In this document: positions 30,401 to 53,900 of the stretch, piece by piece
Layout of the letters: every line of letters starts with the position of its first letter
Position numbering within the stretch: the first letter of the stretch is position 1
From: Squalus acanthias
Lineage: Eukaryota
Reading direction: 5' to 3'
Length of the DNA: 64,000 nucleotides
Assembly: GCA_030390025.1 (NCBI GenBank)
Contig: CM059431.1
Location: forward strand, 139,130,001 to 139,194,000
Program-made: the position numbers and the translations under genes
Notes under the pieces: generated by a model
What the model saw: the letters and a program-made list of their open reading frames with translations, nothing else
What the model was told of the DNA's origin: nothing
Databases searched by the model: none

Positions 30401-33400
30401 ACCTGCTCTAACATTATTGGTGGTGACCCTACTCTAACATTACTGTTGGTGAACCAACTCTAACATTACTGGTGGTGAACCTACTCTAACATTACTGGTG
30501 GTGAACCTGCTCTAACATTACTGTTGGTGAACCTGCTTTAATATTACTGGTGGTGAACCTGCTCTAACATTACTGGTGGTGACCATACTCTAACATTACT
30601 GCTAGTGTCTCAAATCTAACATTACTGGGGTTGAACCTGCTCTAACATTACTGGTGGTATATCAACTGTAACATTACTGGTGGTGAACCTACTCTAACAT
30701 TATTTTGGCGAACCTACTCTAACATTACTGGTGGTGTCTTAACTCTAACATTACTGGTGGTGAAACTGCTCTAACATTACTGTTGGTGTCTCATCTCTAA
30801 CATCTCTTACATTACTGTTCGTGACCCTGCTCTAACATTAATGGTGGAGAACCTACTCTAACATTACTGGCGATGACCCTCCTCTATCATTACTGGTGGT
30901 GACGCTATTCTAACATTTCTGGTGGTGACACTCCTCTAACATTACTGTTGGTGACTATAATCTAACATTACTGGTGGTGACACTACTCTAACATTACTGC
31001 TGGTGACCCTACTGTATCATTACTGGTGGTGACCCTACTCTATCATTACTGGTGGTGACCCACTCTAACATTACTGGTGGTTTCCTTACTCTATCATTAC
31101 TGCTGTTGTCCCTACTCTAACATTACTGATGGTGACTATAATCTAACATTACTGGTGGTGACACTAGTCTAACATTACTGGTGGTGACCCTACACTAACA
31201 TTAATGGTGGTGACCCTATTCTAACATTACTGGTGGTGACCCTACTCTATCATTACTGTTGGTCACCCTGCAATAACATTACTGGAGGCGTGCCTAGTTG
31301 AAATTAATGGTGGTGATTCTACTCTAAATTTAATGATGTTGTTCCTACGCTAACATTACTAGTGCTTTTTCAATCTAACATTACTGGTAGTAACTCTAGT
31401 CTATCATTAATGATGGCAATCCTGCACTAACATTATTTGTGGTGACGCTACTCTAACATTACTTTTAGACACCCTACTCTAACATTACTGTAGTGACACT
31501 GCTCTATCATTACTGGTGGAGAACCTAATGTAACCTTGCTGATGGTGTATCACTTTAACATTAGGTTTGCTGACCTTACTCTAACATCAAATTTGTGGTT
31601 TCCCTACTCTATCATTATTGGTGGTGACTCTACTTTTTTAGTAATGATGTTGGCCCTCCTCGAAAATTACTTGTGGTGACGCTACACTTACACGACAGGT
31701 GTTGATCCTACTCTAACATTAATTGTGCTGGCCATACTCGAACATTAATGGTGTTGACCTTACTCTATCATTACTGGCGGTGAACCAACTCTTATATTAC
31801 TGATGGTGACTCTACTCTAACATTAATGCTTGTGACCATATTCGAACATTATTGGTGGTGACTCCACTGTAACATTACTGGTGGTAACAGTACTCTTACG
31901 TTACAGGTGCTGAAACTACACGAACACAACTGATGGTGACACTGCTCTAACATAGCTGATTGTGACCGTACTCTAAAATCAATGCTGGGGAAATTAAACT
32001 AACATTACTGATGGTGACTTACTGTAGCATTGCTGTTGGTGGAACTACACTAACATTACTGATGCTGACCCTATACTAACATTGCTGATGGTGAATCCAC
32101 GCCAACATTATTGGTATTGACCATACCCTAACATAAATGTTGTCGTGTCTCTACTCTAACATTACTGGTGGTGATTAGACTCAAACATTACTGGTGGTGA
32201 ACCTACTCTAACATTACTGGTGGTGACCCTTCCATAACATTACAATGATGACACTGCTCTAACAATACTGGTGGTGACACTACTCTAACATTACTGGTGA
32301 TTAACCTACCCCAACATTACTGGTGGTGACCCTACTCGAACATTACTAGTGGTAACTCTATGATAACTTTAATGGTGGTGATTCTACTCTATCGTTACTG
32401 GTGGTGACCCTACTCCAGCATTACTGACAGTGATCCTACTCCAACATTACTGGTGTTGACCCAACTCTAACATTACTGGTGTTGACGCTACTCTAACATT
32501 ACTGTTGGTGAAACTACTTTAGCATTACTGTTTTTGACCCTGGTCGAACATTACTGGTGGTGACTCTACTCTCACATTACTGGTGGTGACTCTACTCTCA
32601 CATTACTGGTGGTGAACCTACTCTAACATTACTGGTTGTGACACTACTCTGACATTACTGGTGGTGATCCTACTGTAATTTACTGGTGGTGACTCGACTC
32701 TAACATTACTGACTTTGACACGGTGATTACATTACTGCTGGTGACACTACTCTAACATTACTGGAGATGACCCCACTTTTACTTTACTGGTGGTGGCCCT
32801 ACTCTAACATTACAGGTGATAACCCTACGCTAAAATTAATGAAGTTGATCGTATTTTCAGTGTACATGTCAAGAAACTAGTGTAACATTACAAGTGGTGA
32901 ACCTACTCTAAAATTAATATTGATATCCCAACTCTAACCTTACTGGTGTTGATCGTACTATAACGTTACTGTTGGTGACCTTACTCGAAAATTTCTCCTC
33001 TTGAAACTAATTTAACACTACTGATGGTGACCATTCTCCAACATTGCTGGTGGTGACCGTGATTTAAAATTACCTTTGGTTACCCCACTCTGACATAACT
33101 GATTGTGACCCTTCTCTATCATACCTGTTGGCGACCCTACTCTAACATTATTGGTGGTGAATCTACTCCAACATTAATGGTGGTGGCCCACACTAACATT
33201 GCTGGTGCTGACTGCACTCTAACATTACTGGTGGTGACTCAACTCCAACATTTCTTGTGGTGACCCTACTCTAACGTTACTGGTGGTGACCCTACTCTAA
33301 CATTTGTGGTGATGACCCTACTCTAACGTTACTGATGGTGAAACAACTCTATTATTACTGGTGGCGACCCTACTCTAGCAATACTGTTGTTGACCCTACT

Positions 33401-34465: not shown

Positions 34466-37400
34466 CATAGAGTCATAGTCATAGCGTTATACAGCACAGA
34501 AAGAGGCTCTTCGGCCCATTGTGTCCGCGCCGGCCATGAAGCCCTGTCTATTCTAATCCCATTTTCCAGCACTTGTACCGTAGCCTTGTATGCTATGTCG
34601 TTTCAAGTGCTCATCTAAATGCTTCTTGAATGTTGTGAGGATTCTTGCCTCTACCATCCTTTCAGGCAGTGAGTTCCAGATTCCAACCACCCTCTGGGTG
34701 AAAAAGTTTTTCCGGAAATCCCCTCTAAACCTCCTGCCCCTTACCTTGAAACCATGCCCCCTGGTTATTGTGCCCTCTACTAAGGGGAAAAGTTCCTTAA
34801 TAACTACCCTCTATATGCCCCTCATAATTTTGTACACCTCAATCAGGTCCCCCCTCAGCCAACTCTGCTCTAAGGAGAACATCCCCACCCTGCCCAGTCT
34901 CTCATCATAACTGAAGCGCTCCAGCCCAGGTAACATCCTGGTCAATCTCCTCTGCACCCTCTCCAATGCAATCACATCCTTCCTATCGAGTGGCAACCAG
35001 AACTGCACACATTATTACAGCTGTGGCCTAATCAGCGTTTTGTACAGCTCCATCATAACCTCCCTGCTCTTATATTCTATGCCTCGGCTAATGAAGGCAA
35101 GTATCCCATATGCCTTTTTAACCAACTTATCTAACTGACTTGCTGCCTTCAGGGATCTATGTACATGCACACCAAGGTCCCTCTGATCCTTTGTCCTTCC
35201 TATGTTCCTACCATTCATTCTGTATTCCCTTGCCTTGTTAGTCCGCCGAAAATGCATCACCTCACACTTTTCAGGGTTAAATTCCATTTGCCACTCTTCT
35301 GCCCATCTAATCAACCCGTCTATATCGTCCTGTAGCCTGAGGCTTCCCTCCTCGCTATTTATCACTTCACCAATTTTCGTGTCATCTGCGAACTTACTGA
35401 TCATACCTCCTATATTCATATCTAAATCATTAATGTACACTACAAACAGCAAAGGACCCAGCACCGATCCCTGCGGTACGCCACTGGACACAGGCTTCCA
35501 GTCACAAAAGCAACCTTCGACCATCACCCTCCGCATCCTGCCACTAAGCCAATTTTGGATCCAATTTGCCAAGGTGCCCTGGAACCCATGGGCTCTTTCC
35601 TTCTTGACCAGTCTCCCATGCGGGACTTTGACGAAAGCCTTACTGAAGTCCATGTAGACCATTCAGCTGCACTACCCTCATCCACACACCTAGTCACCTC
35701 CTCGAAAAATTCAATCAAATTGGTCAGACATGATCTCCCCCTGACAACGCCATGCTGACTATCCTTGTTTGATCCTTGCCTCTCCAAGTGGAGACTAATT
35801 CTGTCCCTTAGAATGTTTTCCAATAATTTCCCTAGCACTATTGTTAGGCACACTGGCCTGTAATTCCCTGGTTTATCCCTACTACCCTTCTTGAATAATT
35901 GTACTACGTTAGCTGTGCTCCAGTCCTCTGGCACCTCCCCTGTGGACAGAGAGTTTATGAAAATTTGTGTCAGAGCCCCTGCAATCTCTTCCCTTGCCTC
36001 ACACAGCAGCCTGGGATATATCTCGTCTGGGCCTGGGGATTTATCCACTTTTAAGCCCGCTAAAACCGCTAGTATCTCCTCCCTCTCAATACTAATTTGT
36101 TCACGTATATCACAATCCCCCTGCCTGATTTCAATGCCTAAATCGTCCTTCTCCATAGTGAACACAGATGCAAAATATTCATTTAGAACCTCACCTACAT
36201 CTTCCGACTCTACACACAGATTGCCTCTTTGGTCCCTAATGGGCCCTACTCTTACCCTGGTTATCCTCTTGCCCTTAATATACTTGTAAAACACCTTGGG
36301 ATTTTCCTTTCTTTTGCCTGCCAGTGTTTTTTTATGCTCCCTCTTCGCTCTCCTAATTTCATTTTAAGTACCCCCCTGCACTTTCTATACTCCTCTAGGG
36401 CTTCCACTGTTTTTAGTCCTTTGTATCAGGCAAAAGCCTCCGTTTTTTCCTAATCCATTCTTGTATATCCCTTGACATCCAGGGTTCACTTGGCTTGTTG
36501 TTCCCAACCGTGACCTTTACGGGAGCATGTTGGCGTTGTACTCACTCTATTTCCTTTCTGAAAGACTCCCACTGCTCTGATGTGGATTTCCTGCAAGTAG
36601 CTGATCCCAGTCCACTTTGGCCAGATCCTGCCTTATGATATTACAATCGGCCTTCCCCCAATTTAGAACCTTTATTTCCATCCATCTTTGTCCTTTTCCA
36701 TGAAAACCTTAAATCTCGCCGAATTACGCTCACTCTCACCAAAATGCTCTCCTACTGTCACTTCGACCACTTGCCCGGCTGCATTCCCTAGAATTAGGTC
36801 CAGTACCGCCCCCTCTCTTGTAGGACATTCTATATGCTGGCTCAAAAAGCTCTCTTGGATTCACTTTAACAATTCCGCACCCTCTAAGCCTTTCACACCC
36901 TGACTATCCCACTTAATATTGGGGAAGTTGAAATCCCCTAATAATATTACCCTATTATTTCGACACTTCTCTGAGAATTGCCTACATATCTGTTCCTCTA
37001 TCTCCCCTGACTATTTGGGGGCCTATAGTACACTCCCAGCAAAGTGCTTGCCTCCTTTTTGTTTTTAAGTTCTACCCATATGGCCTCATTAGAGGAACCT
37101 GCTAAGATATCATCCCTCCTTACAGCAGTAATTGACTCCTTGATTAATATTGCGACACGTCCTCCTCTTTTACGCCCCCCTTTGTCTCGCCTGAAGATTC
37201 TATACCCCGGAATATTGAGCTAGCTGTCCTGCCCCTCCCTCAACCATGTCTCTGTGATAGCAACAATATCATACTCCCATGTGTTCATCAACAGCTTCAC
37301 TTCGTCTGCCTTACTCGCAAGACTCCTTGCATTAAAATAAATGCCATCCAGCCTTGTCATACTCCTTTTGCCGTTACATATTTGCTCTGCCTTCCATGCT

Positions 37401-39050
37401 GACTTGTTTATTCCTCTATGTTTGGCTGTGCATCACCCTCTACTATAGCTCCAATCCGTTTCCAATCCCTCTGCCAAGTTAGTTTAAACCACCCCCCTTA
37501 AACAGTACTTGCAAACCTCCCCGCAAGGATGTTGTTCCCATTCCGGTTCGGGTGCAACCCGTCCGACTTGTACAGGTCCCACCTTCCCCAGAAGCAGACC
37601 CAGTGATCCAGGAAACTAAAGCCCTCCCTCCTGCACCAACTCTTTAGCCCCGCACTCATCTGCTCTATCGTCCTATTCCTATACTCACTCGCACGTGTCA
37701 CCGGGAGTAATCCAGAGATTACAACATTTGAGGTATTGCTTTTTAATCTGCCACCTAGCTCCCTAAATACTTGTAGCAGGACCTCATCCCTCTTTCTACC
37801 CATGTCGTTGGTACCAATGTGAACCACAACCTCTGACGGTTCGCCCTCCCCCTTCAGAATGCCCTGCAGCCGTTCAGTGACATCCTGGACCCTGGCACCA
37901 GGGAGGCAACATACCATCCTGGAGTCACGTCTGCGGCCACATAAACGTCAACTGTTCCCCTTACGATAGAATCCCCTGTCACTATTGCTCTCCCACTCTT
38001 TTTCCTCCCCTCTTGTGCAGCTGAGCCACTCGTAGTGCCACAGACTTGGCTCCTGCTGCATTCCCCTGAGAAACCATCTCCCCCCGCAGTATCCAAAAAG
38101 GAAAATCTGTTTGAGAGGAAGACGTACGCAGAGGACTCCTGCACTACCTTCCCAGTTATTTTACTCTCTCTGGCGGTCACCCATTCCCTGTCGGCCTGTG
38201 CACTCTTTACCTGCAATGTGAACCATCTTGTTAAACGTGCTATCCATGAAGATCTCAGCTTCGCGGATGCTCCACAGTGACTCCAGCCCCAGCTCCAGCT
38301 CTGAAACACGGATTTCGAGTAGCTGCAGCTGGAGACACTTCCTGCACATGTGTTCGCCCTGGACACCTAAAGTTTCGCTGAATTCCAACATAGCATTGGA
38401 GGAGCACTCCACGCTGCCGAGCTGCCCTGCCATGTCCTACCCTTAATTTACACCATTTACTGCCTTTAAATTAAAGAATATTAAATACACTAGGAACCTT
38501 ACTTCCCTTGAAACACTACTTACTCTAAACTAGAGACCTTACTTTTACTTTAACGACTGGAATGTAAAAATACTGTAGAAATACTCACCGCAGGTTCTCT
38601 GTCCCCTCTTGTGCAGCTTTTTAGCGCCTGCTCTCCTGGAAGCTGACAAAGATAGAGAAAGAAAGGAACACCTCCCTCCCCTACTCCCTCACTCACCAAA
38701 CTAGCAGCTTACCACTCTGTTCCGCTCTGCACTCCGTGACAAACTGCACTCTAGCTTCCCTTATTTATACTGCTGAAATTTAAGTAAGTGAGCTCTCTGG
38801 CAGTTACTGAACCAGATTAGACCAGTTAATTAATTAATTGCTCTCATCTGCTCTCCAGCGCAGAGCTTGCTTAGCCCTGCCCAAGCCTGGAAGAAACTTA
38901 AAACTTGAAACAGTACATTTCAATTTATGTTAAATGCTAATTGCAAGCATACAAGACAAGATTGTATATAAAAAAAGAGATTAACCTTTAAGATTCACTC
39001 CCTCACTCACCAAACTCGCAGCTTAACACTTTGTTCCGATCTGCACCATG
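34466..39050 (-). mobile_element. Near full-length CR1 LINE (5' UTR, ORF1 Zn-finger plus SGNH esterase, ORF2 endonuclease plus RT); disrupted
   Basis: HMCRKCLQLQLLE, TGDSIVRG, VHIGTND, DGLHPN; KSPGPD, GNYRPV, GVPQGSVLGP, KFADDTK; catagagtcatag tail. Confidence 0.95.
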
Positions 39051-39105: not shown

Positions 39106-40160
39106 ATTTAACACTACTGATGGTGACCATTCTCCAACATTACTGGTGGTGATCGTGAATTAACATTACTGTTGGTGACCCTATTCTAACTGAACTTATT
39201 GTGACCCTACTCTGTCATTGCTGTTGGTGACCCTACTTCAACATTATTGGTGGTGAAACTACTACAACATTAATGGTGTTAACCCCACTCTGTTATTATT
39301 GGTGTTGAGCCAACTCTAACATTACTGATGGTGTTCCTACTCTAACATTACTGGTGTTCGCTCTACTCTAACATTACTTTTGGTGATCCTACTCTAATAT
39401 TATTGGTGGTGACCCTATTCTAATATTACCAGTGGTGACCCTACTCTAACATTACTGGTGGTGACCCTACTCTAACGTTACTGATGGTGAAACTACTCTA
39501 TCATTACTGGTGGTGACCCTACTCTAACATTACTGTTGTTGACACCACTCTAATATTATTGGCGGTGATCCTACTCTAACATTATTGGTAATGACTCCAA
39601 TCTAACGTTACTAGTTGCGAAACTATCTAACAATACTTGTGGTGTCCCTGGTTTAACATTACTCTTACTGACCCTACTCTACCACAACTGACTGTGACCC
39701 TACTCTACCATTCCAAGTGGTGACCCTACTTTAACATTACTGGTGATGACTCTATGATAACGTTACTGATGGTGATCCTACAGTAACATAAATGGTAGTG
39801 ATCCTTCTGTAAAATTACTGGTGATGCCCCACTCTAACATTACTGGTGGCTTACTTTACTCTAACATTACTGCTGGTAACTCTACTCTAACATTACTGAA
39901 TGTGTCACTATTCGAACATTATTGGTGGTGACTCTACTCTAACCTTACTGTTGTTTACCCTGCTCTAACATAACTGGTGGTGACCCTACTCTATCGTTAC
40001 TGGTGTTGAAACTACTCTAACATTACTGTTGGTGAACCTGGTCGAACATTACTGGCCGTGACCCTACTCTATCATTACTGGTGGTGATTCTACTCTGACA
40101 TTAATGCCGGTGACCCTACACTGACATTACTGGTGGTGACTCTGCTCTGACTTTAATGGC
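39106..40160. repeat. 26-bp satellite continuation
   Basis: Same unit; the order of variants parallels 33010-33985. Confidence 0.95.
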
Positions 40161-40239
40161 TGTAGGCTTCGCAAAATCCCCCAGAAACTCGAACAGAGCC
40201 CTAAAGGGAGTGATTTTTGGACTTTTCATACAAACTTGG
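40161..40239 (+). repeat. Truncated 5' LTR (first 79 bp)
   Basis: 78/79 identical to 48715-48793; starts with TG. Confidence 0.92.
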
Positions 40240-43200
40240 CATTTGTGCAGGAAAACCTCGCAGCATTTGCCACTCACAAGCACGACTGTGGGAGGGTAAC
40301 CGGGGTCGAGGTTAGTGTACTTGGGGACCCCATGAACCGCCCACAAAAGCAGTATAACTTCCCCAGGGAAGCTTAGACAGACTTGGAAACGGCTTTGACT
40401 TCTGTAGTCAAAAAGGGGATATTGAGACCTATAGTTACCCACGTGAACTCCCCAATGTGGCCGGTTAGAAAACCAGAGAAATCCTGAAGGGCCACAGTAG
40501 ACTATCGAGTACTCAACCGAAACATCCCCGCCTGTGCCCCCACGGTTGCAGCCGTAGCCGACCTCATTGGAAGTATCCCGGCATCTGCGACCACCTTTAC
40601 AGTGCTGGATATTTCCAACGGGTTCTGGTCCATCCCTCTAAGGAGAGAGGATCAGTACAAGTTCGCCTTTGCATTTAAAGGCCAACAGTCCACATGGAAC
40701 TGTCTGCCCCAGGGCTACCACAACAGCACAAGCATGTTTCCCCAATGTATGGTGAATTGCTTGAAGGGATTCAGCAGGCCCCATCAGCTGGTCCAGTATG
40801 TGGACGGCCTACTCCTTTTTACCGATGAGGGAGAGGAACATGGTCCCCTTCTGGCAGAACTGCTGGAACTGCTCAGGCAAGAGGGCTTTACGGTAAACCC
40901 CAAGAAGGCACAGATTGGCCAGCGGGAAGTCAAATTCCTGGGCCTGGCTGTGCGAGCAGGGGAGAGGGCCATTGACAAAGCTAGAAGGGAAGCAGATCAG
41001 GAGTTACCAGCCCCCAACACAGTTACAGGGGTAAGGTCTTTTCTAGGGCTAACTGGGTACTGCAGAGATTTCATTGAGGATGACGCAGCCACAGCAGCCC
41101 CTCTGCTCCGTCTCCAACACAAGGGAGTGGAGCGGGGTTGGGATGAGGGTTGCGAGGCTGCCTTTGTGAAACTCAAGAGAGATCTGCAAACCGCACCGCT
41201 CTAGGGGCCATTGATGGAGGGGTAGAGTTTTTCCTACAGGTAGCAGCCAGTGGGGACAGTCTGAGTATAGTGCTGCTCCAAGAGAGGCATGGCAAGCTGA
41301 GACCAATGGTTTACTTCTCCAGAATACTCACTGATGTGGAGAGGAGCTACTTCAACTGTGAGAGGCACCTCCTAGCCACTCACTGGGCTGTGAAAAGATC
41401 ATTGATCTTCACAGGCACCTCTCCCATCACACTCCTCACTCACCACACGCCCACCCAGATGCTCTTGGATGGGAGAATTAAAGATGGGACAGTGAGCAGT
41501 GCCCGCATTGCACGCTGGACCCTGCTTCTCTCACAAATGGATCTGAGGGCCAAAGCTCGCAGCAAACATGATTTACTCAGGGACAGCCCACCGGAGTTCC
41601 GTTGAAGGGGTATGGGAAGTCAACAAAGGTTTGCGAGCTGGGATAAACCCCACAGGCCGCGAAATCTACGTGGACGGTTCAAGCACAGTATCAGCTGGCA
41701 AACGACCCACAGGGTTTGGGATTTATGACCCAGAGGCAGGCATTGCTCTGGCAATCAAGCTCCCCAGCACCATGAGTGCCCAGCAGGCTGAACTGTCTGC
41801 GGTGGTGTATGTAGTCACACACCCCAAGGAATTCCCTACCCCATACACGATTTGCTCGGACAGCATGTTCACATGCAATTCGTGTACAGAGTACCTGGCC
41901 ATCTGGTCCCGTCGTGGATAAACCTCCGCCGATGGGAGACCCCTGGCCATCAAGCCTCTGTTGGAGAAAATCCTGAGGGCAGTAGGGGAGGAAGGTAGGG
42001 TATACATGCAAAAGGTGAAGGCCCATTCCAAGGTAAAGCCCCGCGCAGAGGGCAATCACCAAACCGACATGCTGGCCAAAGAGGACGCCAGTACAGGCAC
42101 GTTGTGGGATCCATATGGATCAAACCCGGTAGCAGCAATAAGAGGCAGAGGAGGGACCCAAGGGAGTGCAGGGGTAGCATTGACCCCGGACCTAAAGACG
42201 GTCCAGGCACGGGATCCCATCCTAAAAACTGTCCTGGAAACGCTGGCTACAGGGGAGAAGATAGAGGGCCCTTACGGCGCAGCAGCCATAACCCGCAAAG
42301 AAGGGATGCTGTTCAGTGGGGAACAATGGGTAGTGCCGCAGCAGCACCGAAGGGAATTCCTCCAACTGACCCATGAGGGTCCAGGAGCGGGGCTTCCCGG
42401 GACTGAGACCACCTGGCAGCAGGTGGAACAGGCAGGATGGTGGCCAGGACTGAGGGAGGATGTCCGCGAGTTCTGTGCAGGCTGTCTGGTGTGTGCTGCT
42501 AACAACCCTGAACCCCAGAAAAGGAAGGTATCTATGGGACACATCAGGAGGGTAGAGGGACCATGGCAGTCGATCCAGGTCGACTACATCGGGCACCTAC
42601 CCACGCTCAGGGTGGCTACAAATACTGCCTAGTCCTGGTGGATGTGTTCTCAAAGTGGGTGGAAGCTTTTCCATGTCGAACAGCTACCGCTTTGGGTACA
42701 GCCAGGATCCTGGTCAGGGAAGTGTTCTCACGATGGGGGCTCCCACAGTATGTGGAGTCAGACCAGGGGAGTCACTTTACTGGGCAGGTCATGCAAGAGA
42801 CCCTCAGGGTACTCGGCATAGAAGGGAAATGGCACTTCGCCCACAACCCACAGTCATCAGTGATTGTGGAGCGTTTAAACCGTACCATCAAAGAAAGGCT
42901 GCGAAAGGAGATGGGAGACTCACCCAAAAAGTGGGTAGAAGCCTTACTGTTGGTCCTAATGGGGATCCGGGCCAGCCAGTCAAAAAGCACGGGGTATTCC
43001 CCACACCAGCTCATGACTGGCAGGATTATGCGGACCCCCACCCATGTGCTAGCCCCGGTGCTCACGGAAGGGCAGCTCAGGCAAGTGAACCGGGACAGAT
43101 TCGTCAGGAATCTGTTGGACCACCTTAAACAGGTCCACTGGCAGGCTGCGAGTAACATGGGAAAACAGCATCGGGGTAACCGATTGCTGCTGGAACCCCG

Positions 43201-43490
43201 CAAGCACCACGAGTGGGAGGTTGGAGATCAGGTCATGGTGAGAAATTTTGCTCGGGTAGGGAGTTTCGAACCATTGTACATGGGGCCCTACAACATTGTA
43301 GACAAGGCAAGCCCCATGGTTTATGCCATAAAGATGCCCCGCCGTACAAAGTGGTTTCTCATCAAATAATGCAAACTGTTTAAACCTAAAAGGGAACAGC
43401 CGCCAAAGCTGGATGGCCCCAAGTTAGAAATCCTCAGCCAGCCGCAGCTGTGGCAGACGCACAAGCTGCAGCGGGAGGGACAGTGTGTTA
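40240..43490 (+). pseudogene. pol: pol: RT, tether-like RNase H, catalytic-type RNase H, integrase; multiple stops and frameshifts
   Basis: WPVRKP, DYRVLN, LDISNGFWSIPL, LPQGY, QYVDG (YVDD site), VRSFLGLTGY; ERHLLA...ARW; IYVDGS...SAQQAEL...SDS...KVKAHS..GN; CAGCLVC, VDVFSKWVEAFP, ESDQGSHFTG, VERLNRTIK, GPY. Confidence 0.93.
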
Positions 43491-45494
43491 ACATAAGAAC
43501 ATAAGAAATAGGAGCAGGAGTAGGCCAATCGGCCCCTCGAGCCTGCTCCGCCATTCAATAAGATCATGGCTGATCTGAACCTAACCGCCAATCTACTATC
43601 TATCACAGAACCATATCCTGCATCTAACAGAATTGCACACACGAAATAGGAGCAGAATCAGGCTACACGGTCCCTGGGCCCGCTCCACTACCCACAGGGC
43701 CATGACCGGATCCGAACCTAGACTCATGTCCAAATTCCTGCCCGCTCCCCGTAACCCTTAATGCCCTTTACTTCTAGGAAACTGTCTATTTCTGTTTTAA
43801 ATTTATTTAATGATGTAGCTTCTACAGCTTTTTGTGGCAGCATATTCCATGGACCTACCACCCACTGAGTGAAGTAGTTCCTCCTCATCTCAGTTTTGAA
43901 AGAGCAGCCCCTTATTCTAAGACTATGTCCCCTAGTTCTAGTCTCACCCGTCATCGGGAACATCCTCCCCGCATCCACCCGATCCAACCCCTTCACAATC
44001 TTATATGTTTCAATAAGATCGCCTCTCATTCTTCTGAACTCCAATGAGTAGAGTCCCAATCTACCCAACCTCTCCTCATATGACCACCCCCTCATCCCCG
44101 GGATTAATCGAGTGAACCTTTTTTGCACTGCCTCGAGAGCAAGGATGTCTTTCCTTAAGTAAGGACACCAAAACTGTATGCAGTATTCCAGGTGCGGTCT
44201 CACCAATACCTTGTACAACTGATGCAATACCTCCCTATTTTTATATTCTATCCCCCTAGCAATGAAAGCCAACATTCCATTTGCCTTCTTAATCACTTGC
44301 TGCACCTGCATACTAACCTTTTGAGTTTCGTGCACCAGGACCCCCAGATCCCTTTGCACTTCAGTACTCTCCAGTTTCTTGCCATTAAGATAATAAGTTG
44401 CTCTAGGATTTTCCTGCCAAAGTGCATCACCTCACACTTTCCAGTGTTGTATTCCATCTGCCAAATCTCTGCCCACTTACTTAGCCTGTCTATGTCCCCT
44501 TGCAGGTTTTTTATGTCCTCCTCACTCACTACTTTCCCTCCCATCTTTGTATCATCTGCAAATTTTGATATGTTACACTTGGTCCCTTCCTCCAAATCGT
44601 TAATATAGATTGTAAAGAGTTGGGGACCCAGCACTGATCCCTGTGGAACACCACTAGTTACTGATTGCCAGTCTGAGAATGAACCATTTATCCCAACTCT
44701 TTGCTTTCTGTTAGATAGCCAATCCTCTATCCATGCCAGAATATTACCCCCAATCCCGTGATTTTTTACCTTAAGCAATAATCTTTTGTGTGGCACCTTG
44801 TCAAATGCCTTTTGGAAGTCTAAATACACTACGTCCACTGGTTCCCCTTTATCCACTCTATATGTTACTTCCTCAAAGAACTCCAGAAAATTTGTCAAAC
44901 ATGACTTCCCCTTCGTAAAACCATGCTGACTTTGTCCTATTAAATTATGATTATCCAAATGTCCTGTTACTGTTTCCTTAATAATGGACTCCAAAATTTT
45001 ACCTACCACAGATGTTAGGCTAACAGGGCTATAGTTACCAGCCTTCTGTCTACTGCCCTTTTTAAATAAGGGTGTTACATTAGCAGTTTTCCAGTCTGCC
45101 GGGACCTTAGCGGAATCCAGGGAGTTTTGAAAAATTATTACCAATGCATCTACAATCCCTACCGCCACTTCCTTCAAGACTCTAGGATGTAAGCCATCAG
45201 GTCCAGGTGATTTATCCGCCTTGAGTCCCATTATTTTACCGAGTACCACTTCCTTAGTGATTTTGATCGTGTTTAGCTCCTCTCCCCCTATAGCCCCCTG
45301 TTTGTCCAGTGTTGGGATATTCTTAGTGTCCTCTACTCTAAAGACTGATACAAAATATTCATTCAGTGTTTTTGCCATCTCCATATTTCCCACCATTAAT
45401 TTCCCGGTCTCATCCTCTAAGGGACCAACATTTACTTTAGCCACCCTTTTTCTTTTTATATAACTATAAAAACTCTTACTATCTGTTTTTATAT
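43491..45494 (-). mobile_element. Young 5'-truncated CR1 inserted in the provirus
   Basis: ORF2 is open over ~1.75 kb apart from one frameshift; (aacataag)n tail; tgtt at both junctions. Confidence 0.93.
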
Positions 45495-46039
45495 GTTGTC
45501 TCACAGGAGAGGTCACTCCACCGATTATGTATTTAGAGGGTCCCACCCAAAGAGGGTTACAACCCGAAAAAGAGCGCCCAAGAGCAGGGAGCGTTCTAAA
45601 GTTGGGGATTACCAGCCTACAGCCTCCAACAGTGAGGGATTCACAGGAGAGGTAGTACTGGAAGAAGAAGAGAGAGTAGGGTCCCCCGCCTGCAGCCTCA
45701 GGCTGGGAGGAGCCCACAGATATGAACGGTGGCGCTGCAGCCACACAAAAGGGGGTAGTGTGCTGCAGCACAGGACGCAGCTGGGATGTTAAGATACCCC
45801 CAGCGGTTTTGAGGAAGGCCTTCTGGGTCCGGCGGTACAGGCCGCACTACACCCAGGTGTACAAGCCATCCAGAGGCCACATAAGGCAGAGACTAAACAG
45901 GATTTAACCTGGCCGTCGGTTTTAAGTAATTGCAGTTTTGGTGGTTATGGTTATCACTAGTTTAGTTGTTTGTAGAGTTTTTTAAGTTTAAGGGCTTGAT
46001 TAATTATCCAGCCAGAGAACCTTTCTGGGACATGGATAT

Positions 46040-46062
46040 ATGTTTTGTGTGCGCCCCTACAG
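46040..46062 (+). promoter_or_regulatory. Putative env splice acceptor
   Basis: ttttgtgtgcgcccctacAG ends 13 nt upstream of the signal-peptide ATG at 46076. Confidence 0.5.
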
Positions 46063-46075
46063 AAAGGACTTCGGG

Positions 46076-48427
46076 ATGACAAGGTTTCTGCTCCTGCTCG
46101 CCCTGGTAGGGGTGAGCATCGGTGACCGAGGTGACGTGGTGGACTCCCACATCTATGCGTGCTCAGGAGTGAGATCACCAGTCGTCACCACAGGTGTTGG
46201 CGAGCGGGGAGTGGAGGAGCTCGCCATCTACTTCCACGAGGGAAGGTGGAAGGGTGGCTGGGGTCCAACTCTACTAAATACTCCAACCAGCCCGGGTTCA
46301 CGTACGGGGAGGCCTCCCTCCCATGCCCCAGAATACAGGTCGTTGCCACAAGGGTCAGTGTCACGGAGGGGAAGCGTGTGTGCCTTACCTGTAAGGGACG
46401 AATTCCCTTGAATAGGTGGTGGTGGCTCAGGAAGCTGAGCAGGGACGCAGGGGTCCATACAGCCGACTGGGAAAGATTAGGGAACGACACCCACCAGACA
46501 ATCACAGGGACCCAAGGAGGAGTTAGTGTTTGTTGGGATAAGTGGTGGGTGTCGGAACAGGGAGTCTATGTTTGTATGTGGGGATCAGAGGAAGTCTGCC
46601 CCACAGGGTTATCCATCATTATCTCCAGCCAATGGAAAGATGCCGGGGAGGGGATAGGGTGGGATTCTAGCCTGCATGGGTGCGTGGTCCCACACATTCC
46701 GCTCCCAGTTAATGCCACTGAACTCGTGGCACACACTCGAAAGCCCCTACCCACGACCCAGGTACCGAAAACCCTGGAAGAAAAGTGCCCTACCACCACC
46801 AAGGGACCAGGGAATGGGTTAGTCCTAGCACCAAACGAAAATGTACTATACCAGGGGGTACACTATGCAGTAGCTTCAGTAATATTAAACCTTACCGAGG
46901 TATACTTACCTGAGTGGTGTCCTAAGGAGACGGAGCAACTGTACCAGGCCCTGCTAAAGGAAATGTTTCGGAAATTTTACGAATTTGATTTTGCCAATAT
47001 AGACAAAGTAGAGCTATACAGAATACACCCTGATAACCCTATGGGCATGGGTAGACAAAGAAGGGGAGCCTGGAATGATGTCTTCACTGCCTACAGTACA
47101 GGGTCCTCTGTAATAAATAGCCTGGATGACATGGAATTACAGACACAGATAAATGGTTTAAAAACCCAGTTAAGAAAGATCCTGAAGAATGGGAACACAG
47201 TGGTAGGCTCAGAGCTACATGAGGACCAAGCTGTGACGGTTCATTTAAAGCAAATTATTGCAGAATTGGAAAGGCATGCCAAAAATTTAAATGCACTCAT
47301 ACGGGAGGATAGGAATGCATCGGATCAGGCTGCACAGAATGAGGTGTGCGTGCTGTACGGGGCATGGTTGCTGGGCGAGGGCCCTAGCAACCTGGAGGAT
47401 TTAAAGCAACTTTAGTCCCCTCCTGGATCAGCAACAAGCACCTTGCAGCCCTCCACCCGTTTAGTAATTCGCTGACCCATGCCAATTTCGACTAGCCTCT
47501 GAAGCCTACCCTGTCCCAATAGATTGTGGGCGTTCAAATCACACTACCATGGGGATAGTAGTGAGAATGACGGTCATGAGTGGGACAGCCCGACCCGTAC
47601 CGGTATACAGGGTGGAGAACATTGGAGTCATTCAAGGGGGTGCATACATCCGTTTTACAGCGGTCCCACCTTAGGTCATAAAGTGGGAGCACGCCATGAC
47701 AGGTACTGACCTCTCCGGGTGCCGGAGCCGGGGTTCACACATAATACTGTGTCCCCAGCACTTGAACGCCTATTCCAAACCACAGTGCGGGTTTAAAGCT
47801 GCTGGCGCACAACCTATCAATTGTACCATGGAGGTGATGGCACACGGCCATGTTTCCCCACAGGTAGCATATATAGGTGGTGGGACATATTGTGTCACCA
47901 CAGGTGCGTCCCACTACCAGCATGGACACTTCTGGTGTCCGGTAAGTGACAGCAGTTTCTGCTTTAAACCCGAGGCAGAAGTTCAAGTGGCCCAGGAACG
48001 GATTGTCCCCATACCTGAACCCTCCACTGTTCACCTCACTGTAACAGAAAACATCACCAACCAGCAAAAGTATGTGACTTACTTTGGATATAAAATTCCC
48101 CCTCTACCCGAACATCTTACCATCCTACTTAAAGCTGTAGAGATTTCACAAAAACATTTCCACACCCTGGAACAGAAAACAGTTGAAATAGGGGCAGAGA
48201 TTTTGGATATAGTAGTTCCACCCTGGTGGGATATTTTCGAGAATATAGAGGTGCCGTCCTGGATCAGGATGGCTTCCCATCTTTTGGTGGTCTGCCAGCT
48301 CGGGATAGTTCTCTACCTGCTGTGTACAAAGTGCAGGGGAAGGGACGGGGAGCTCCGCTCCAGACACGAAGGGACTTGGGAAGTGCATCAAAATAAAGGC
48401 TATGGCCAGGGATGGAAGGAACATTGA
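46076..48427 (+). pseudogene. env: env-like class I fusion glycoprotein with N-terminal Ig-like domain; disrupted
   Basis: Signal peptide MTRFLLLLALVGVSIG; frameshift at ~46262; Ig-like segment; T/P stalk; RQRR furin site (47053-47064); heptad LQTQINGLKTQLRKIL; Cys-rich DLSGC..ILCP..C..NCTMEV..YCV; TM HLLVVCQLGIVLYLLC. Confidence 0.85.
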
Positions 48428-48703
48428 ATTTCGTCTTTTAATTAAAAAAAAATTGTATATGTGTTGTGTCATTTTTACGAGGTGTATGATGTGTTTTTTT
48501 TCCAAAGTGTGCAGGGGTGTCGGACCCTCTCCGTGCTTGGATGTGAAATAAAGATTGATTCTTACCTGTATGTTCCTGAAACACCACTTTCAAAAGGGGA
48601 ATTAATGTTTGGGATTTTAGTTTAGGTAATACAGCGGAAGGTTGGTTTTCGGGGATCGGAAATTTTGCTCACCTGTTAATGATACTAAGTCAGTGTTAGT
48701 ATC

Positions 48704-48714
48704 AAAGTGGGGGA
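48704..48714 (+). other. Polypurine tract
   Basis: aaagtggggga lies immediately before the TG of the 3' LTR. Confidence 0.8.
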
Positions 48715-49806
48715 TGTGGGCTTCGCAAAATCCCCCAGAAACTCGAACAGAGCCCTAAAGGGAGTGATTTTTGGACTTTTCATACAAACTTGGGATGATG
48801 GGACCTCAGTGAAGTGATTTGATGTAAAAACCTAAGACCACAAGAAGAAAACCTTGAGGAAACTCACTTTTCGAATCTTACAGGGGCAAGACGCCTTCAC
48901 AGACACACAGGCTGCAGAGGGGCGTGGCCAGGCAGTGCAGTAAACTGTCGACAAAACCAAAAAAAAACCTCACAAACACATTCAAATATGGATCCCCAGG
49001 GGCAAACAAGATGCTGGTAATCTAAAAACGATTCAATGACAATATAATTTCGATCACACAGTTTCATAGCCATTATCCCATCCAAAAAACAATCAATCAG
49101 GTATGCAGAGAACCGATTTAAAAGCCCGCCAAACAGAAGGACAATAGAATGAAGATTTGGCGCGTAGATAAGGCGATGTTTAAATCGGAAAGCGATTAAC
49201 ACTTAGCAAAAACCATCGGAGCTGGTCAGCCCGCCAAAAACTAGACAAAGGACATTTGCATTCAAAAAGGAATTCGTTTTAGTAAGGGGTTTTGAGCGCG
49301 AAAAAATAGACAGTATAATTTGAATGCCTGTGCCATAATCTCGCTCTCTTTGGACTGACTGGCGACGCGAACACAGCTCTCTCCCTGCTCCAGCAAAACT
49401 TACCACAAGCCACGAGGAAGAAAACCAGCACGCAAGAAGAAACCATAAGGGTCTTCCGGAGTCCTTTTAAACAAAAAGACTCTAATATCCAGTCAAGGAC
49501 TCGTTGGTGAGCATTATCCCTGATCTCCTGAAACCAAAAACCTAGCCAGATAGTGGGATATTTGGGAGGGATAAGGTTTTGTTTGATATATTGTAATTTC
49601 CCTCGCTTGTACCGTGCGTTTCCCGAATCTGTGTTTAAGTAGTAAGTGTGTTTTCAAGTTTGTAACCTTTTTCTTTTAAGAAAGTAAATTTCTTTCATCA
49701 GAACCTGTTTACTGCAATTTTGTTCACAACCCCTAAATAAGCCCAAAGTCTAGGAACCGGAGGGGTGTTGGTCGATTCGAACCGCTCACTTAAGATACCC
49801 CTTACA
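48715..49806 (+). repeat. 3' LTR (~1.09 kb; right end inferred)
   Basis: Start fixed by the PPT and the 5' LTR match. End placed at ccttaCA, an imperfect inverted match to tgtagg. Confidence 0.65.
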
Positions 49807-51632: not shown

Positions 51633-52185
51633 TTAAGAACATAAGAAATAGGAGCTGGAGTCTGCCATTTGGCCCTTCAAAAACATCATGGCTCATCTTC
51701 TACGTCAAGTCCACCTTTCACAATAGTCCCATATTATTTGGTACCCTTAGTATCCAAAAATCCATCTCTGTTCTGAAAATATACTAAACGAAAGAGCATC
51801 CACATCACTCTGGGGTACATAATTGCAAGGATTCACAACCCTCTGAGTGAAGACATTTCTCCTCATCTCGAACCTAAATGACTGACCCCTTATTCTGAGA
51901 GAGTGACACCTACTTCTAGACTCCCCAGCCAGGGGAAACATCCTCCAAACATTTATCCTGTCAAGCCTCTTAAGAATTGTATACGTTTCAATGAGATTAC
52001 CTCTAGGAAATATATGGATAGTCTCCTCAATATCTCCTCATAGGACATTCCCACCCCTTCCTATCCCAGGAATAAGTCTGGCAGACCATCGTTCCACTCC
52101 CTCTAAGGCAAGTATATGCTTCCTCAGGTAAGGAGACAAAAACTGTACACAATACTCCAGGTGTGGTCTCACCAAGGCCCTCTAT
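51633..52185 (-). mobile_element. CR1 3' fragment
   Basis: MFPLAGESRSRCHSLRIRG..MRRNVFTQRVVN; aagaacataagaa tail. Confidence 0.85.
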
Positions 52186-52224
52186 ATTTACAATAATTTT
52201 TCTTTATCCTACACACCAATCCAT

Positions 52225-53900
52225 TTAGGTGAACGCAGTAACTGTGTAATTAGAGATAGAGGACAGGGTAATTTAGGGGAACACAGTAACAGTGTAATTA
52301 GAGACAGAGGGCAGGGTAATTTAGGGGAACACAGTAACTGTGCAATTAGAGATAGAAGAGAGGGTAATTTAGGGGAACACAGTAACTGTGTAATTAGAGA
52401 TAGAGGACAGGGTCATTTAGGGGAACACAGTAACTGAGTAATTAGAGATAGAGGACAGGGTCATTTAGGTGAACACAGTAACTGTTTCATTAGAGATAGA
52501 GGGCAGGGTAATTTAGGTAAACACAGTAACTGTGTAATTAGCGATAGCGGACAGGGTAATTTAGGGGAACACAGTAACTGTGTAATTAGAGATAGAGTAC
52601 AGGGTAATTTAGGGGAACACATGAACAGCTTAATTAGAGATAATGGACAGTGTAAATTAGGGGAACACAGTAACTGTTTAATTAGTAATAGTGGACAGGG
52701 TAATTTAGGGGAACACAGTAACAGTTTAATTAGAGATAATGGACAGGGTAAATTAGGGGAACACAATAACTGTTTAATTATAGATAGAGGACAGGGTAAT
52801 TTAGGGGAACAAAGTAACAGTTTAATTAGAGATAGAGGACAGGGTAATTTAGGGGAACACAGTAACTGTAATTAGAGATAGAGGACAGGGTAATTTAGGG
52901 GAACACAGTAACTGTGTAATTAGAGATAGAGGACAGGGTAATTTAGGGGAACACAGTAACTCTGTAATTAGAGATAGAGGACACGGTAATTTAGGGGATC
53001 ACAGTAACTGTAATTAGAGATAGAGGACAGGGTAATTTAGATGAACACAGTAACTCTGTAATTAGAGATAGAGGACAGGGTAATTTAGGGGAACACAGTA
53101 ACTGTGTAATTAGAGATCGAGGACAGGGTAATTTAGGGGAACACAGTAACTGTGTAATTAGAGATAGAGGACAGGGTAATTTAGGGGAACACAGTAACTG
53201 TGTAATTAGAGAAAGAGAAATGGGTAATTTAGGGGAACACAGTAACAGTTAAATTAGAGATAAGGACAGGGTAAATTAGGGGAACACAGTAACTGTGTAA
53301 TTAGCGATAGAGGACAGGGTAGTTTAGGTGAACACAGTAACTGTGTAATTAGAGATAGAGGACAGGATAATTCATGCGAACACAGTAACTGTGTAATTAG
53401 AGATATAGGACAGGGTAATTTAGGGGAACACAGTAACTTTGTAATTAGTGATAGAGGACAGGGTAATTTAGGGGAACACAGTAACTGTGTAATTAGAGAT
53501 AGAGGACAGGGTCATTTAGGGGAACACAGTAACTCTGTAATTAGAGATAGAGGACAGGGAAATTTAGGTGAACACAGTAACTGTTTAAATGTAAATAGTG
53601 GACAGGGTAATTTAGGGGTACACAGTAACTGTGTAATTAGAGATAGAGGACACGGTAATTTAGGGGAATGCAGTAACTCTTTAATTAGTAATAGAGGACA
53701 GGGGAAGTAAGGGGAACATGTTAACTTTTTAATTCGAAATAGAGGACAGGAGAATTATGGGGAATGCTGTAACTGTTTAATTATAAATTGGGACCAGGGG
53801 GAACATAAACCATTTATTTAGAAGTAGGTTCATGTAAAGATATTAACCGTTTAATAACAAATAGAGGGCACGGGAATGCCAGGAGAACACAACAACTGTT
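52225..53900. repeat. 48-bp tandem satellite
   Basis: Unit aattagagatagaggacagggtaatttaggggaacacagtaactgtgt, about 30 homogeneous copies that decay at the right end. Confidence 0.97.

Follow-up and report, generated by a model that had tools for sequence, protein, structure and literature searches.

A predicted F-type envelope gene with a conserved N-terminal head in an endogenous retrovirus of Squalus acanthias

Retroviral envelope proteins (Env) with the fold of paramyxovirus and pneumovirus fusion (F) proteins are a recent surprise, described for lokiretroviruses in 2020 and for foamy viruses in 2024, and they raise the question of how such proteins arose and spread in retroviruses. According to the available portions of the sources, the Env of lokiretroviruses (Loki) is of the F type and is equipped with a signal peptide, an R-x-K-R site, a coiled coil and a membrane anchor (Wang and Han 2020, PMC7947760). 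In foamy viruses an F-like core carries a receptor-binding domain (RBD) inserted upstream of the furin site (gp130, PDB 8rm1; Sci Adv 2024, PMC11468914). The surface subunit (SU) of gamma-type Envs, such as those of murine leukaemia virus (MLV) and feline leukaemia virus (FeLV), starts with an immunoglobulin (Ig)-like RBD, a modified IgV domain, which is followed by a hinge (bioRxiv 10.1101/2024.03.17.585361). An env gene comparable to all three was analysed in a stretch of 64,000 nucleotides of the Squalus acanthias genome (GenBank assembly GCA_030390025.1, contig CM059431.1, positions 139,130,001 to 139,194,000 of the forward strand), referred to below as the window. The gene lies at positions 46076-48427 on the plus strand and is a degraded gene of an endogenous retrovirus (ERV) of high copy number in this 3.7-Gb genome.

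The explanation that appears quite probable as a whole is that this feature is a dead env copy of a young, very abundant ERV family of cartilaginous fish. The intact protein of about 784 amino acids would be a class I fusion glycoprotein consisting of a signal peptide, an extension of about 225 residues, a Pro/Thr linker and a complete F-type machine. The centre of the extension (residues ~85-190) is probably an Ig-like beta-sandwich, and the extension, here called the head, would be an old part common to an env clade of sharks, skates and frogs and not a recent capture. What is new is a head placed ahead of F2 in an F-type Env of retroviruses, as seen in chondrichthyans and frogs; a literature search covering few subscription journals did not find this combination in print. 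In a preliminary description of this DNA the architecture was said not to be known from a retroviral Env. Only the combination with an F-type core is unusual; an Ig-like RBD with a proline-rich hinge is classical in gamma-type SU, as far as the available text on it goes.

The env gene and its predicted fusion core

The env gene was read as four reading-frame pieces. The first, at 46004-46411, contains the signal peptide with its ATG at 46076; the others are 46135-47415, 47468-47674 and 47675-48427. An intact natural copy of the same env family, P0001 (784 amino acids), served as reference for residue numbering. By tblastn, residues 1-103 of P0001 were placed at 46076-46381, residues 56-445 at 46240-47409, residues 443-472 at 47400-47489 and residues 468-784 at 47474-48424. 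In DNA alignments with intact copies, the window differs in length by a single base at each of three places (about 46249, 47410 and 47476) and has an in-frame stop at 47672-47674. The later breaks and the stop agree with those described at first; the first break, formerly given as ~46262, was placed about 13 nt upstream of that position by comparison with three intact copies. The frames, the quoted motifs, the cleavage site, the transmembrane helix and the absence of a CX6CC motif were all recovered as originally reported. The division of the gene is given below with the residues of P0001; confidence of the predicted structure is given as predicted local distance difference test (pLDDT) values.

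46076-46123, plus strand: start of env with its signal peptide, residues 1-16 (hydrophobic stretch after the ATG; residues 2-10 modelled as a helix)
46124-46326, plus strand: N-terminal segment before the Ig-like candidate, residues 17-84 (first break at ~46249; pLDDT <35; conserved in skate and shark relatives)
46327-46644, plus strand: Ig-like candidate domain, residues 85-190 (sub-threshold Pfam Ig_3, predicted strands, Cys/Trp/Tyr-x-Cys; fold unconfirmed)
46645-46803, plus strand: Pro/Thr-rich linker, residues 191-243 (by composition; pLDDT <50 at residues 190-234)
46804-47052, plus strand: F2-like segment, residues 244-326 (pLDDT 83-94; alignments to F proteins begin at residues 243-245)
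47053-47064, plus strand: furin-type cleavage site RQRR, residues 327-330 (sole R-x-[KR]-R)
47065-47409, plus strand: fusion-peptide-like segment and heptad repeat A, residues 331-445 (predicted helices 334-374 and 382-444)
47410-48106, plus strand: Cys-rich beta domains corresponding to F domains I and II, residues ~446-678 (pLDDT 80-97 at ~420-650; aligned to F proteins)
48107-48202, plus strand: heptad repeat B, residues 679-710 (predicted helix 679-710; aligned to the F stalk of post-fusion structures)
48269-48337, plus strand: transmembrane helix, residues ~733-755 (Kyte-Doolittle)
48338-48427, plus strand: cytoplasmic tail and stop codon (frame end at 48427)

The second frame break is located directly 3' of the heptad repeat A segment, and the stretch of the Cys-rich beta domains contains both the break at ~47476 and the in-frame stop. 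RQRR is the only R-x-[KR]-R motif of P0001, and basic sites align at its position in nine out of ten relatives. The subunit following the cleavage site is 454 amino acids long. P0001 contains 23 Cys, ten of them in the ectodomain between residues 425 and 630, and eight N-glycosylation sequons. Its single hydrophobic segment is found at ~733-755, where 19-residue Kyte-Doolittle windows above 1.5 start only at positions 731-737. The supposed mucin-like stalk comprises no more than about 40 residues (205-245), of which 39% are Pro, Thr or Ser, and has one N-glycosylation sequon (NAT); it is a linker and not a mucin domain.

A search of the own genome with the N-terminal half of env returned 9057 first-look candidates, 98 of which were scored. 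All 98 matched, with E ≤ 9.7e-243 and 85-100% identity, and 14 had an open frame of at least 799 amino acids without a stop in the match; four such frames were read directly. In a protein library of 1.8 billion representatives, 48 matches were found at E ≤ 0.001. Given the matches in genome and library, the env observation is not due to chance. Among nine RNA runs, none was listed as containing the sequence. The close relatives in the library come from one skate and several sharks; word-indexed protein searches added nine further close relatives with the alignment as query and five with the head as query. Distant full-length relatives come from sharks and frogs, with 17-25% identity in the alignment, and align from residue ~225 onward only. 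Many further F-type env lineages are present in the own genome, with 33-80% identity to a shark homologue.

Among 19 other loci compared, all four breaks of the window are shared by only one, L002, which is 99% identical and lies 151 kb downstream on the same contig; the first break also occurs in L005. The breaks thus post-date integration and the region was duplicated later. That the breaks are old and common to a subfamily was ruled out by this same distribution. The sharing of all four breaks by L002 points to a segmental duplication after decay of the provirus.

Some other copies deserve mention. The diverged lineages L021-L036 include some open frames, e.g. one of 784 amino acids in L024, and most have an N-terminal head of their own with a similar Cys/Trp pattern. 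Copies L009, L012 and L016 match the window only over 46010-48673 (~90%), with the upstream flank, the signal peptide and the cytoplasmic tail all differing from those of the window, which suggests recombinant subfamilies with one common env body. The public gene models P0006, P0008, P0011 and P0038 join env fragments to zinc-finger, Niban-like, cadherin and F-box genes; these fusions are probably annotation artefacts from ERV insertions.

The full-length P0001 protein was modelled with AlphaFold2 (AF2) from a 42-row alignment, giving a pLDDT of 80-97 at residues 240-300 and 420-650. With this model, Foldseek found 213 matches at E ≤ 0.001 in the PDB, the best being the F protein of human parainfluenza virus 3 (hPIV3; 1ztm_B, E 4.4e-11), and every row among the matches listed was a paramyxovirus or pneumovirus F protein. 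VIA-align gave the F protein of Nipah virus as best match (8dmj_A, Z 12.1, rmsd 5.1, 290 residues aligned), followed by those of Langya virus (12.0), hPIV3 (11.9), respiratory syncytial virus (11.2) and human metapneumovirus (10.3). F proteins made up 49 of the 50 VIA rows, and the matches spanned model residues ~245-710. The remaining row was the post-fusion structure of the foamy Env (8rm1_D, Z 8.7), matched over residues 378-713; against the same protein, the family profile gave a weak match (E 0.035). Among the language-model neighbours of residues 236-784 (scores 0.91-0.94), the annotations were Baculo_F, Gypsy, Fusion_gly and CoV_S2. In BFVD, a library of predicted viral structures, 55 matches were obtained at E ≤ 0.001, including glycoproteins of arli-, lispi- and chu-like viruses (mononegaviral), baculovirus F and paramyxovirus F. 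The BFVD matches also included the Envs of walleye epidermal hyperplasia virus 1 (WEHV-1; Q9WHI8, 4.5e-13), walleye dermal sarcoma virus (WDSV; A4GTG3, 1.4e-9) and feline foamy virus (3.6e-5).

In the predicted model, domains I, II and III and heptad repeats A and B are present in the nested order of an F-type fold, and a single polybasic site, RQRR, separates a short F2 from a long F1. The order of an F2-like part, furin-type site, heptad repeat A, domains I/II, heptad repeat B and anchor is that of paramyxovirus and pneumovirus F, as is the fold at model residues 245-710. The identity is only 9-16%, however, F proteins have no counterpart to the N-terminal extension of ~225 residues, and the shark env belongs to a retroviral genome without a separate attachment protein. 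Two points fit an F protein less well: the segment after RQRR, read from its sequence, is weakly hydrophobic for a fusion peptide, and the Pfam scan of P0001 gave no match to the F family PF00523 at E ≤ 10. In the sister lineage L024, PF00523 reached E 0.036 (12.8 bits, with a cut-off of 29.8), and phmmer with P0001 found nothing significant among PDB sequences. Taken together, the model comparisons strongly support the prediction that residues ~245-710 form a class I fusogen of the paramyxovirus/pneumovirus F type and not a gamma-type transmembrane (TM) subunit. The F-like character proposed earlier for the post-cleavage subunit was thus borne out by the AF2 model, Foldseek, VIA-align and the language-model neighbours.

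The relation to other retroviral Envs could be specified further. Gamma-type features are absent: there is an F2/F1 machine in place of a gamma-type C-domain and TM, and no match to TLV_coat or a related Pfam family was found in P0001. An ordinary gamma, epsilon or foamy match of the C-terminal part had been regarded as fatal to the F-type proposal. Foamy Env and predicted epsilonretroviral Envs do match, because those Envs are themselves F-like. With foamy Env, the shark env shares a retroviral origin and an F-like core with an RBD or candidate domain of its own before the furin site, as far as the available text on foamy Env allows the comparison. It differs in having a cleavable-type N-terminal signal and no leader peptide, and the Pfam foamy Env family (PF03408) had no match at E ≤ 10 in P0001 or the other env proteins scanned.

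The walleye epsilonretroviruses infect fish, and their lineage is also known, from the available literature, as ERVs in chondrichthyans and frogs. In the viral library, the Envs of WEHV-1 and WDSV rank with the best structural matches, in a comparison of which both sides are predicted models, but they are much longer (1317 and 1159 amino acids). No paper linking walleye or epsilonretroviral Env to paramyxovirus or pneumovirus F was found in a search that covered few subscription journals. The match suggests that the F-type class is wider among fish retroviruses than the searched papers state.

The N-terminal head

Since the structural matches start at residue 243-245, about 225 residues of the mature protein are additional to the F-type machine. 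No head is present in the published Loki consensus Envs that were compared (Bsp, Aro, Oja and Sri), where the F2-like part follows directly after the signal peptide; by eye, these share similar motifs with the shark env at the start of the F2-like part. The foamy RBD differs in position, being inserted after the HRC helix with a fold of its own according to the available text, while the additional domain of the shark env precedes the F2-like segment. The order of head and then hinge is that of gamma-type SU, to the extent that this is described in the available text. The hinge of gamma-type SU is known as the proline-rich region. No likeness of the head to the gamma-type RBD was detected in searches that included no direct comparison aimed at it.

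An Ig-like fold of residues ~85-190 is reasonably likely. Ig_3 was the top Pfam match of the head in the window (E 0.0098), in P0001 (0.014), in P0009 (0.0085) and in P0068 (0.0027), with bit scores of 16-17 in the window and P0001 and of 16-19 across the lineage of the window, at a cut-off of 30. An independent lineage of the same genome, L032, matched Ig_3 with E 9.7e-4 (20 bits) and ig with 0.019, and a third lineage, P0034, matched V-set with E 0.045. One shark homologue was automatically named "Ig-like domain-containing protein" in UniRef. With a profile of the head, the only match in the PDB was the IgV domain of CRTAM (E 0.87), aligned over almost its full length (residues 8-95 of 101).

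In the full-length model, strands were predicted at residues 91-96, 101-107, 115-121, 133-135, 141-146, 149-155, 161-170 and 182-188. In both AF2 models, the full-length one and one of the head only (residues 17-245, 10-row alignment), Cys103/106 fall in strand 2, Trp115-117 in strand 3 and Tyr165-x-Cys167 in strand 7, corresponding to strands B, C and F of an Ig domain. Skate and shark relatives that cover this stretch conserve these residues. A Cys/Trp/G-x-Y-x-C pattern, drawn up once P0001 had been seen, was found in eight of 16 env N-terminal regions representing five lineages. As controls, four of 8000 shuffled sequences, none of 81 other reading frames of the window and none of six F-like parts contained the same pattern; among host exons it occurred in 5/20 I-set, 2/30 V-set and 0/12 fn3 exons. 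When the head was compared with 48,161 chains by VIA-align, about two-thirds of the 50 rows were V-type Ig domains by title, covering model residues ~70-190.

Several results weigh against an Ig domain. No env protein had an Ig match at the Pfam cut-off, and in one scan seven of 13 proteins were without any Ig match. The pLDDT of the candidate domain was ~58-66 in the full-length model, and the head-only model had a mean pLDDT of 36.3. Foldseek with the head model gave no match at E ≤ 0.001, antibody heavy-chain variable (VH) rows being mixed with galectin and CUB rows. The best VIA score of the head was Z 4.7, with none reaching 5, which is under the noise level stated for the tool, and the scores of an ESM Atlas search were low (0.80-0.82). 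Comparison of env head profiles with host I-set and V-set exons by hhalign stayed at noise level (P 0.02-0.07; the negative control of I-set against fn3 gave 0.048, and I-set against V-set gave 6.9e-10). Head homology between env lineages was also weak by this method (P 0.036).

The same low-confidence models and hhalign values could fit a head that is a real conserved domain of another beta-rich fold (lectin-, CUB- or adhesin-like) or of a new one, in which the Ig motifs are convergent. MAp19/CUB and galectins among the top Foldseek rows are in line with such a fold, as are the first VIA rows (a streptococcal adhesin domain, a collagen-binding domain and FlgD, Z 4.5-4.7), and additional conserved Cys (29, 84, 153, 175 and 203) and Trp clusters would be unusual for a plain Ig domain. 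This alternative is rather unlikely in view of the Ig families being the top Pfam match in three independent lineages, the IgV domain being the sole PDB profile match, the Cys, Trp and Y-x-C residues falling in both models on the strands predicted as B, C and F, and V-type Ig domains accounting for most of the VIA rows. Of the Ig domain originally proposed, the Cys/Trp/Y-x-C signature with a Cys spacing of ~60 residues was confirmed, and the predicted strand order fits it; the beta-sandwich itself is plausible, with low-confidence models and no significant fold or profile match.

Selection on the head was assessed as dN/dS over 55 pairs of 11 copies with long open frames, out of 20 loci fetched, with no consensus used. 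The pooled dN/dS was 0.11 for the Ig-like segment (bootstrap 0.04-0.25), 0.31 for the F1 ectodomain (bootstrap 0.23-0.44), 0.39 for the segment before the Ig-like candidate, 0.28 for the linker and 0.26 for the F2-like segment. The sample is biased toward intact frames and its pairs are not independent, which tempers these values. Purifying selection acts on every env segment, and constraint on the head is no weaker than on the fusion core. A dN/dS of 0.11 fits a folded functional domain and not the rapidly evolving surface of a decoy.

This bears on the proposal made at first, according to which a lokiretrovirus captured a host Ig domain and uses it, on top of an F-type fusogen, for receptor binding or as an immune decoy. 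The Ig-type signature with its weak Pfam matches and the F-type core are as expected from it, and the four published Loki consensus Envs, without anything between signal peptide and F2-like part, would make the head an addition. The head shows, however, no significant similarity to the I-set or V-set exons of its own host (the hhalign comparison above), and its signature recurs in shark and frog lineages that are 17-25% identical in the core, so that any capture would be ancient. The low dN/dS is opposite to the usual fast evolution of decoy or antigenic surfaces and argues for a conserved structural or binding role. By eye, the C-terminus of the Loki-Xtr Env, in the form available, is unlike that of the Xenopus homologue P0065, and a lokiretroviral carrier meets the further objections discussed in the next section. 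A captured host domain of this kind is highly improbable, and none of the results speaks for a decoy role. Because no host Ig exon is significantly similar and the signature is shared by such distant lineages, the preferred explanation remains that of an old head belonging to the env clade.

An Ig domain already published for lokiretrovirus Env was not found in the literature searched. The word "immunoglobulin" is absent from the main texts of PMC7947760 and PMC9040795, in which "shark" and "cartilaginous" do not occur either.

The provirus and its retroviral affiliation

The env gene is part of a decayed provirus on the plus strand that spans 40158-49771 of the window. Its other parts are listed below, with LTR for long terminal repeat and RT for reverse transcriptase.

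40158-40242, plus strand: 5' LTR remnant of 85 nt (96% identical to 48712-48796)
40488-43369, plus strand: pol remnant in several frames with RT from mid-domain, RNase H and integrase (Pfam)
43493-45493, minus strand: fragment of a non-LTR retrotransposon, a secondary insertion of 2.0 kb between pol and env (absent from copy L018)
48715-49771, plus strand: 3' LTR-like sequence comprising at least this stretch, at least 1 kb (similarity to L099; contains the 85-nt repeat of 40158-40242)

In the pol remnant, Pfam identified RVT_1 (1.1e-26), RNase_H (4.3e-4), Integrase_H2C2 (5.7e-15) and rve (6.3e-15). Gag, protease, the start of the RT and the remainder of the 5' LTR are missing from this copy. 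The sequence at 48715-49771 is 81% identical to LTR-like DNA found ~3-4 kb upstream of env in copy L099. Copy L018 is contiguous across the stretch of the insertion at 43493-45493; RT-like frames on the minus strand at 43724-44431 and 44293-45846 were identified by reading the translation only.

To which retroviruses this provirus belongs was judged from pol. The best solved RT relatives are those of MLV (1.7e-34, 122.8 bits), the foamy virus protease-RT (2.7e-30) and Ty3 (1.5e-24), and the best solved integrase relative is that of prototype foamy virus (PFV; 3.6e-17). A search of viral contigs with the RT fragment gave no relative. In a printed alignment compared by eye, the RT active-site region and the LPQG and KKAQ motifs of the window resemble the rows of MLV, Xen-1 and especially snakehead retrovirus (SnRV), including a ten-residue identity with SnRV, while the Loki and foamy-like rows shown there are unlike. 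In the available text of PMC4422223, SnRV-like and epsilon-like ERVs with a downstream env are described in a chimaera. On these sequence likenesses, a class I provirus of SnRV- or epsilon-like type is somewhat favoured.

The attribution to lokiretroviruses made in the preliminary description is therefore doubtful. It would require a lokiretrovirus missed in sharks by the 2020 screen, its env being a Loki Env with an added head. The retroviral env in print that resembles PF00523 in sequence (E 2.2e-7, PMC7947760) is indeed that of Loki, and the published consensus Envs, as far as available, show motifs similar to the shark env by eye, in the segment after the cleavage site as well as at the F2-like start. 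The screen itself, as reported in the available text of the same paper, was positive in none of five chondrichthyan genomes (one of Carcharhiniformes, three of Orectolobiformes and one of Chimaeriformes). With RT motifs that match other rows than Loki, MLV as best solved RT, the chimaera ERVs already on record and the predicted walleye Envs among the best structural matches, a Loki origin is quite unlikely.

A second possibility is that the provirus belongs to a clade of foamy-like ERVs from sharks and frogs (XtrFLERV-CmiFLERV), for which pol is the sole gene detected in the available text of PMC5512871; the env would then be the missing env of that clade. In the same vein, Env domains were not found for shark spuma-like ERVs in a 2023 study (PMC10699275, as far as its available text goes). 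The host range of the env, with sharks, skates and frogs, parallels that of the clade, PFV integrase is the best solved integrase and foamy Env is F-like. The genome also contains 62 matches above cut-off to the foamy protease family Spuma_A9PTase. However, among the places listed (both lists being partial), none of the 62 has an env copy within 10 kb, and the matches probably represent a separate foamy-like ERV population. The RT is nearer to that of MLV than to the foamy RT, and its motifs are by eye unlike both the FLERV and the foamy rows available. Since the env, in addition, has no Pfam foamy Env match and no leader-peptide architecture, and its extra domain is placed differently from the foamy RBD, membership of this clade is considered unlikely, and the SnRV- or epsilon-like affiliation remains the more likely one.

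Some further observations were made in and around the provirus. Once the insertion is removed, the distance from the pol stop to the env ATG (43370-43492 plus 45494-46075) is ~700 nt. Copies L005 and L006 have a frame of 285-413 amino acids ending ~170 nt before env, which could be a pol extension or an extra gene. At 35015-36363 and 37498-38366 on the minus strand, another non-LTR RT-like frame and an upstream frame were seen by eye; with its GDS...G and GTND motifs, the upstream frame recalls the esterase-type ORF1 that some LINEs (long interspersed nuclear elements) possess. Two long tandem arrays are present at ~30038-33000 and ~52116-53800, their periods being 26 nt and about 48 nt.

A model of fusion and its implications

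In the mechanism that the predicted architecture suggests, the env precursor would trimerise and then be cut at RQRR. The head would remain attached via the F2-like segment and could act as an attachment or trigger module, a role that is supplied in paramyxoviruses by a separate HN, H or G protein and in foamy viruses by the RBD before the cleavage site. Engagement of a receptor would free heptad repeat A to extend, upon which heptad repeat B would zip back to form a six-helix bundle. Binding of a receptor by the head is proposed by analogy to the foamy RBD, which lies upstream of the furin site in an F-like core.

As a tentative generalisation, which we put forward with less than even confidence, a shark, skate and frog Env clade may carry an ancient Ig-like receptor-binding head before the F2 of a paramyxovirus-type fusogen. 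If so, this would be a third independent route to an attachment domain on an F-type machine, in addition to a separate HN, H or G protein as in paramyxoviruses and an internal RBD as in foamy viruses. A head followed by a hinge, the layout of gamma-type SU, would then have a counterpart on a different fusion core. Together with the match to the walleye Envs, an F-type env would be common to several deep lower-vertebrate lineages of retroviruses (Loki, foamy and SnRV-/epsilon-like) and no peculiarity of Loki.

An F-type env is here seen in cartilaginous fish, in which the Loki screen found none, on a provirus with a polymerase of class I/SnRV-like appearance. Many copies of the family are still open and the added head is strongly conserved. 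If the head is an Ig-like receptor-binding module, this family would offer a tractable natural example of an F-type fusogen gaining an attachment function.

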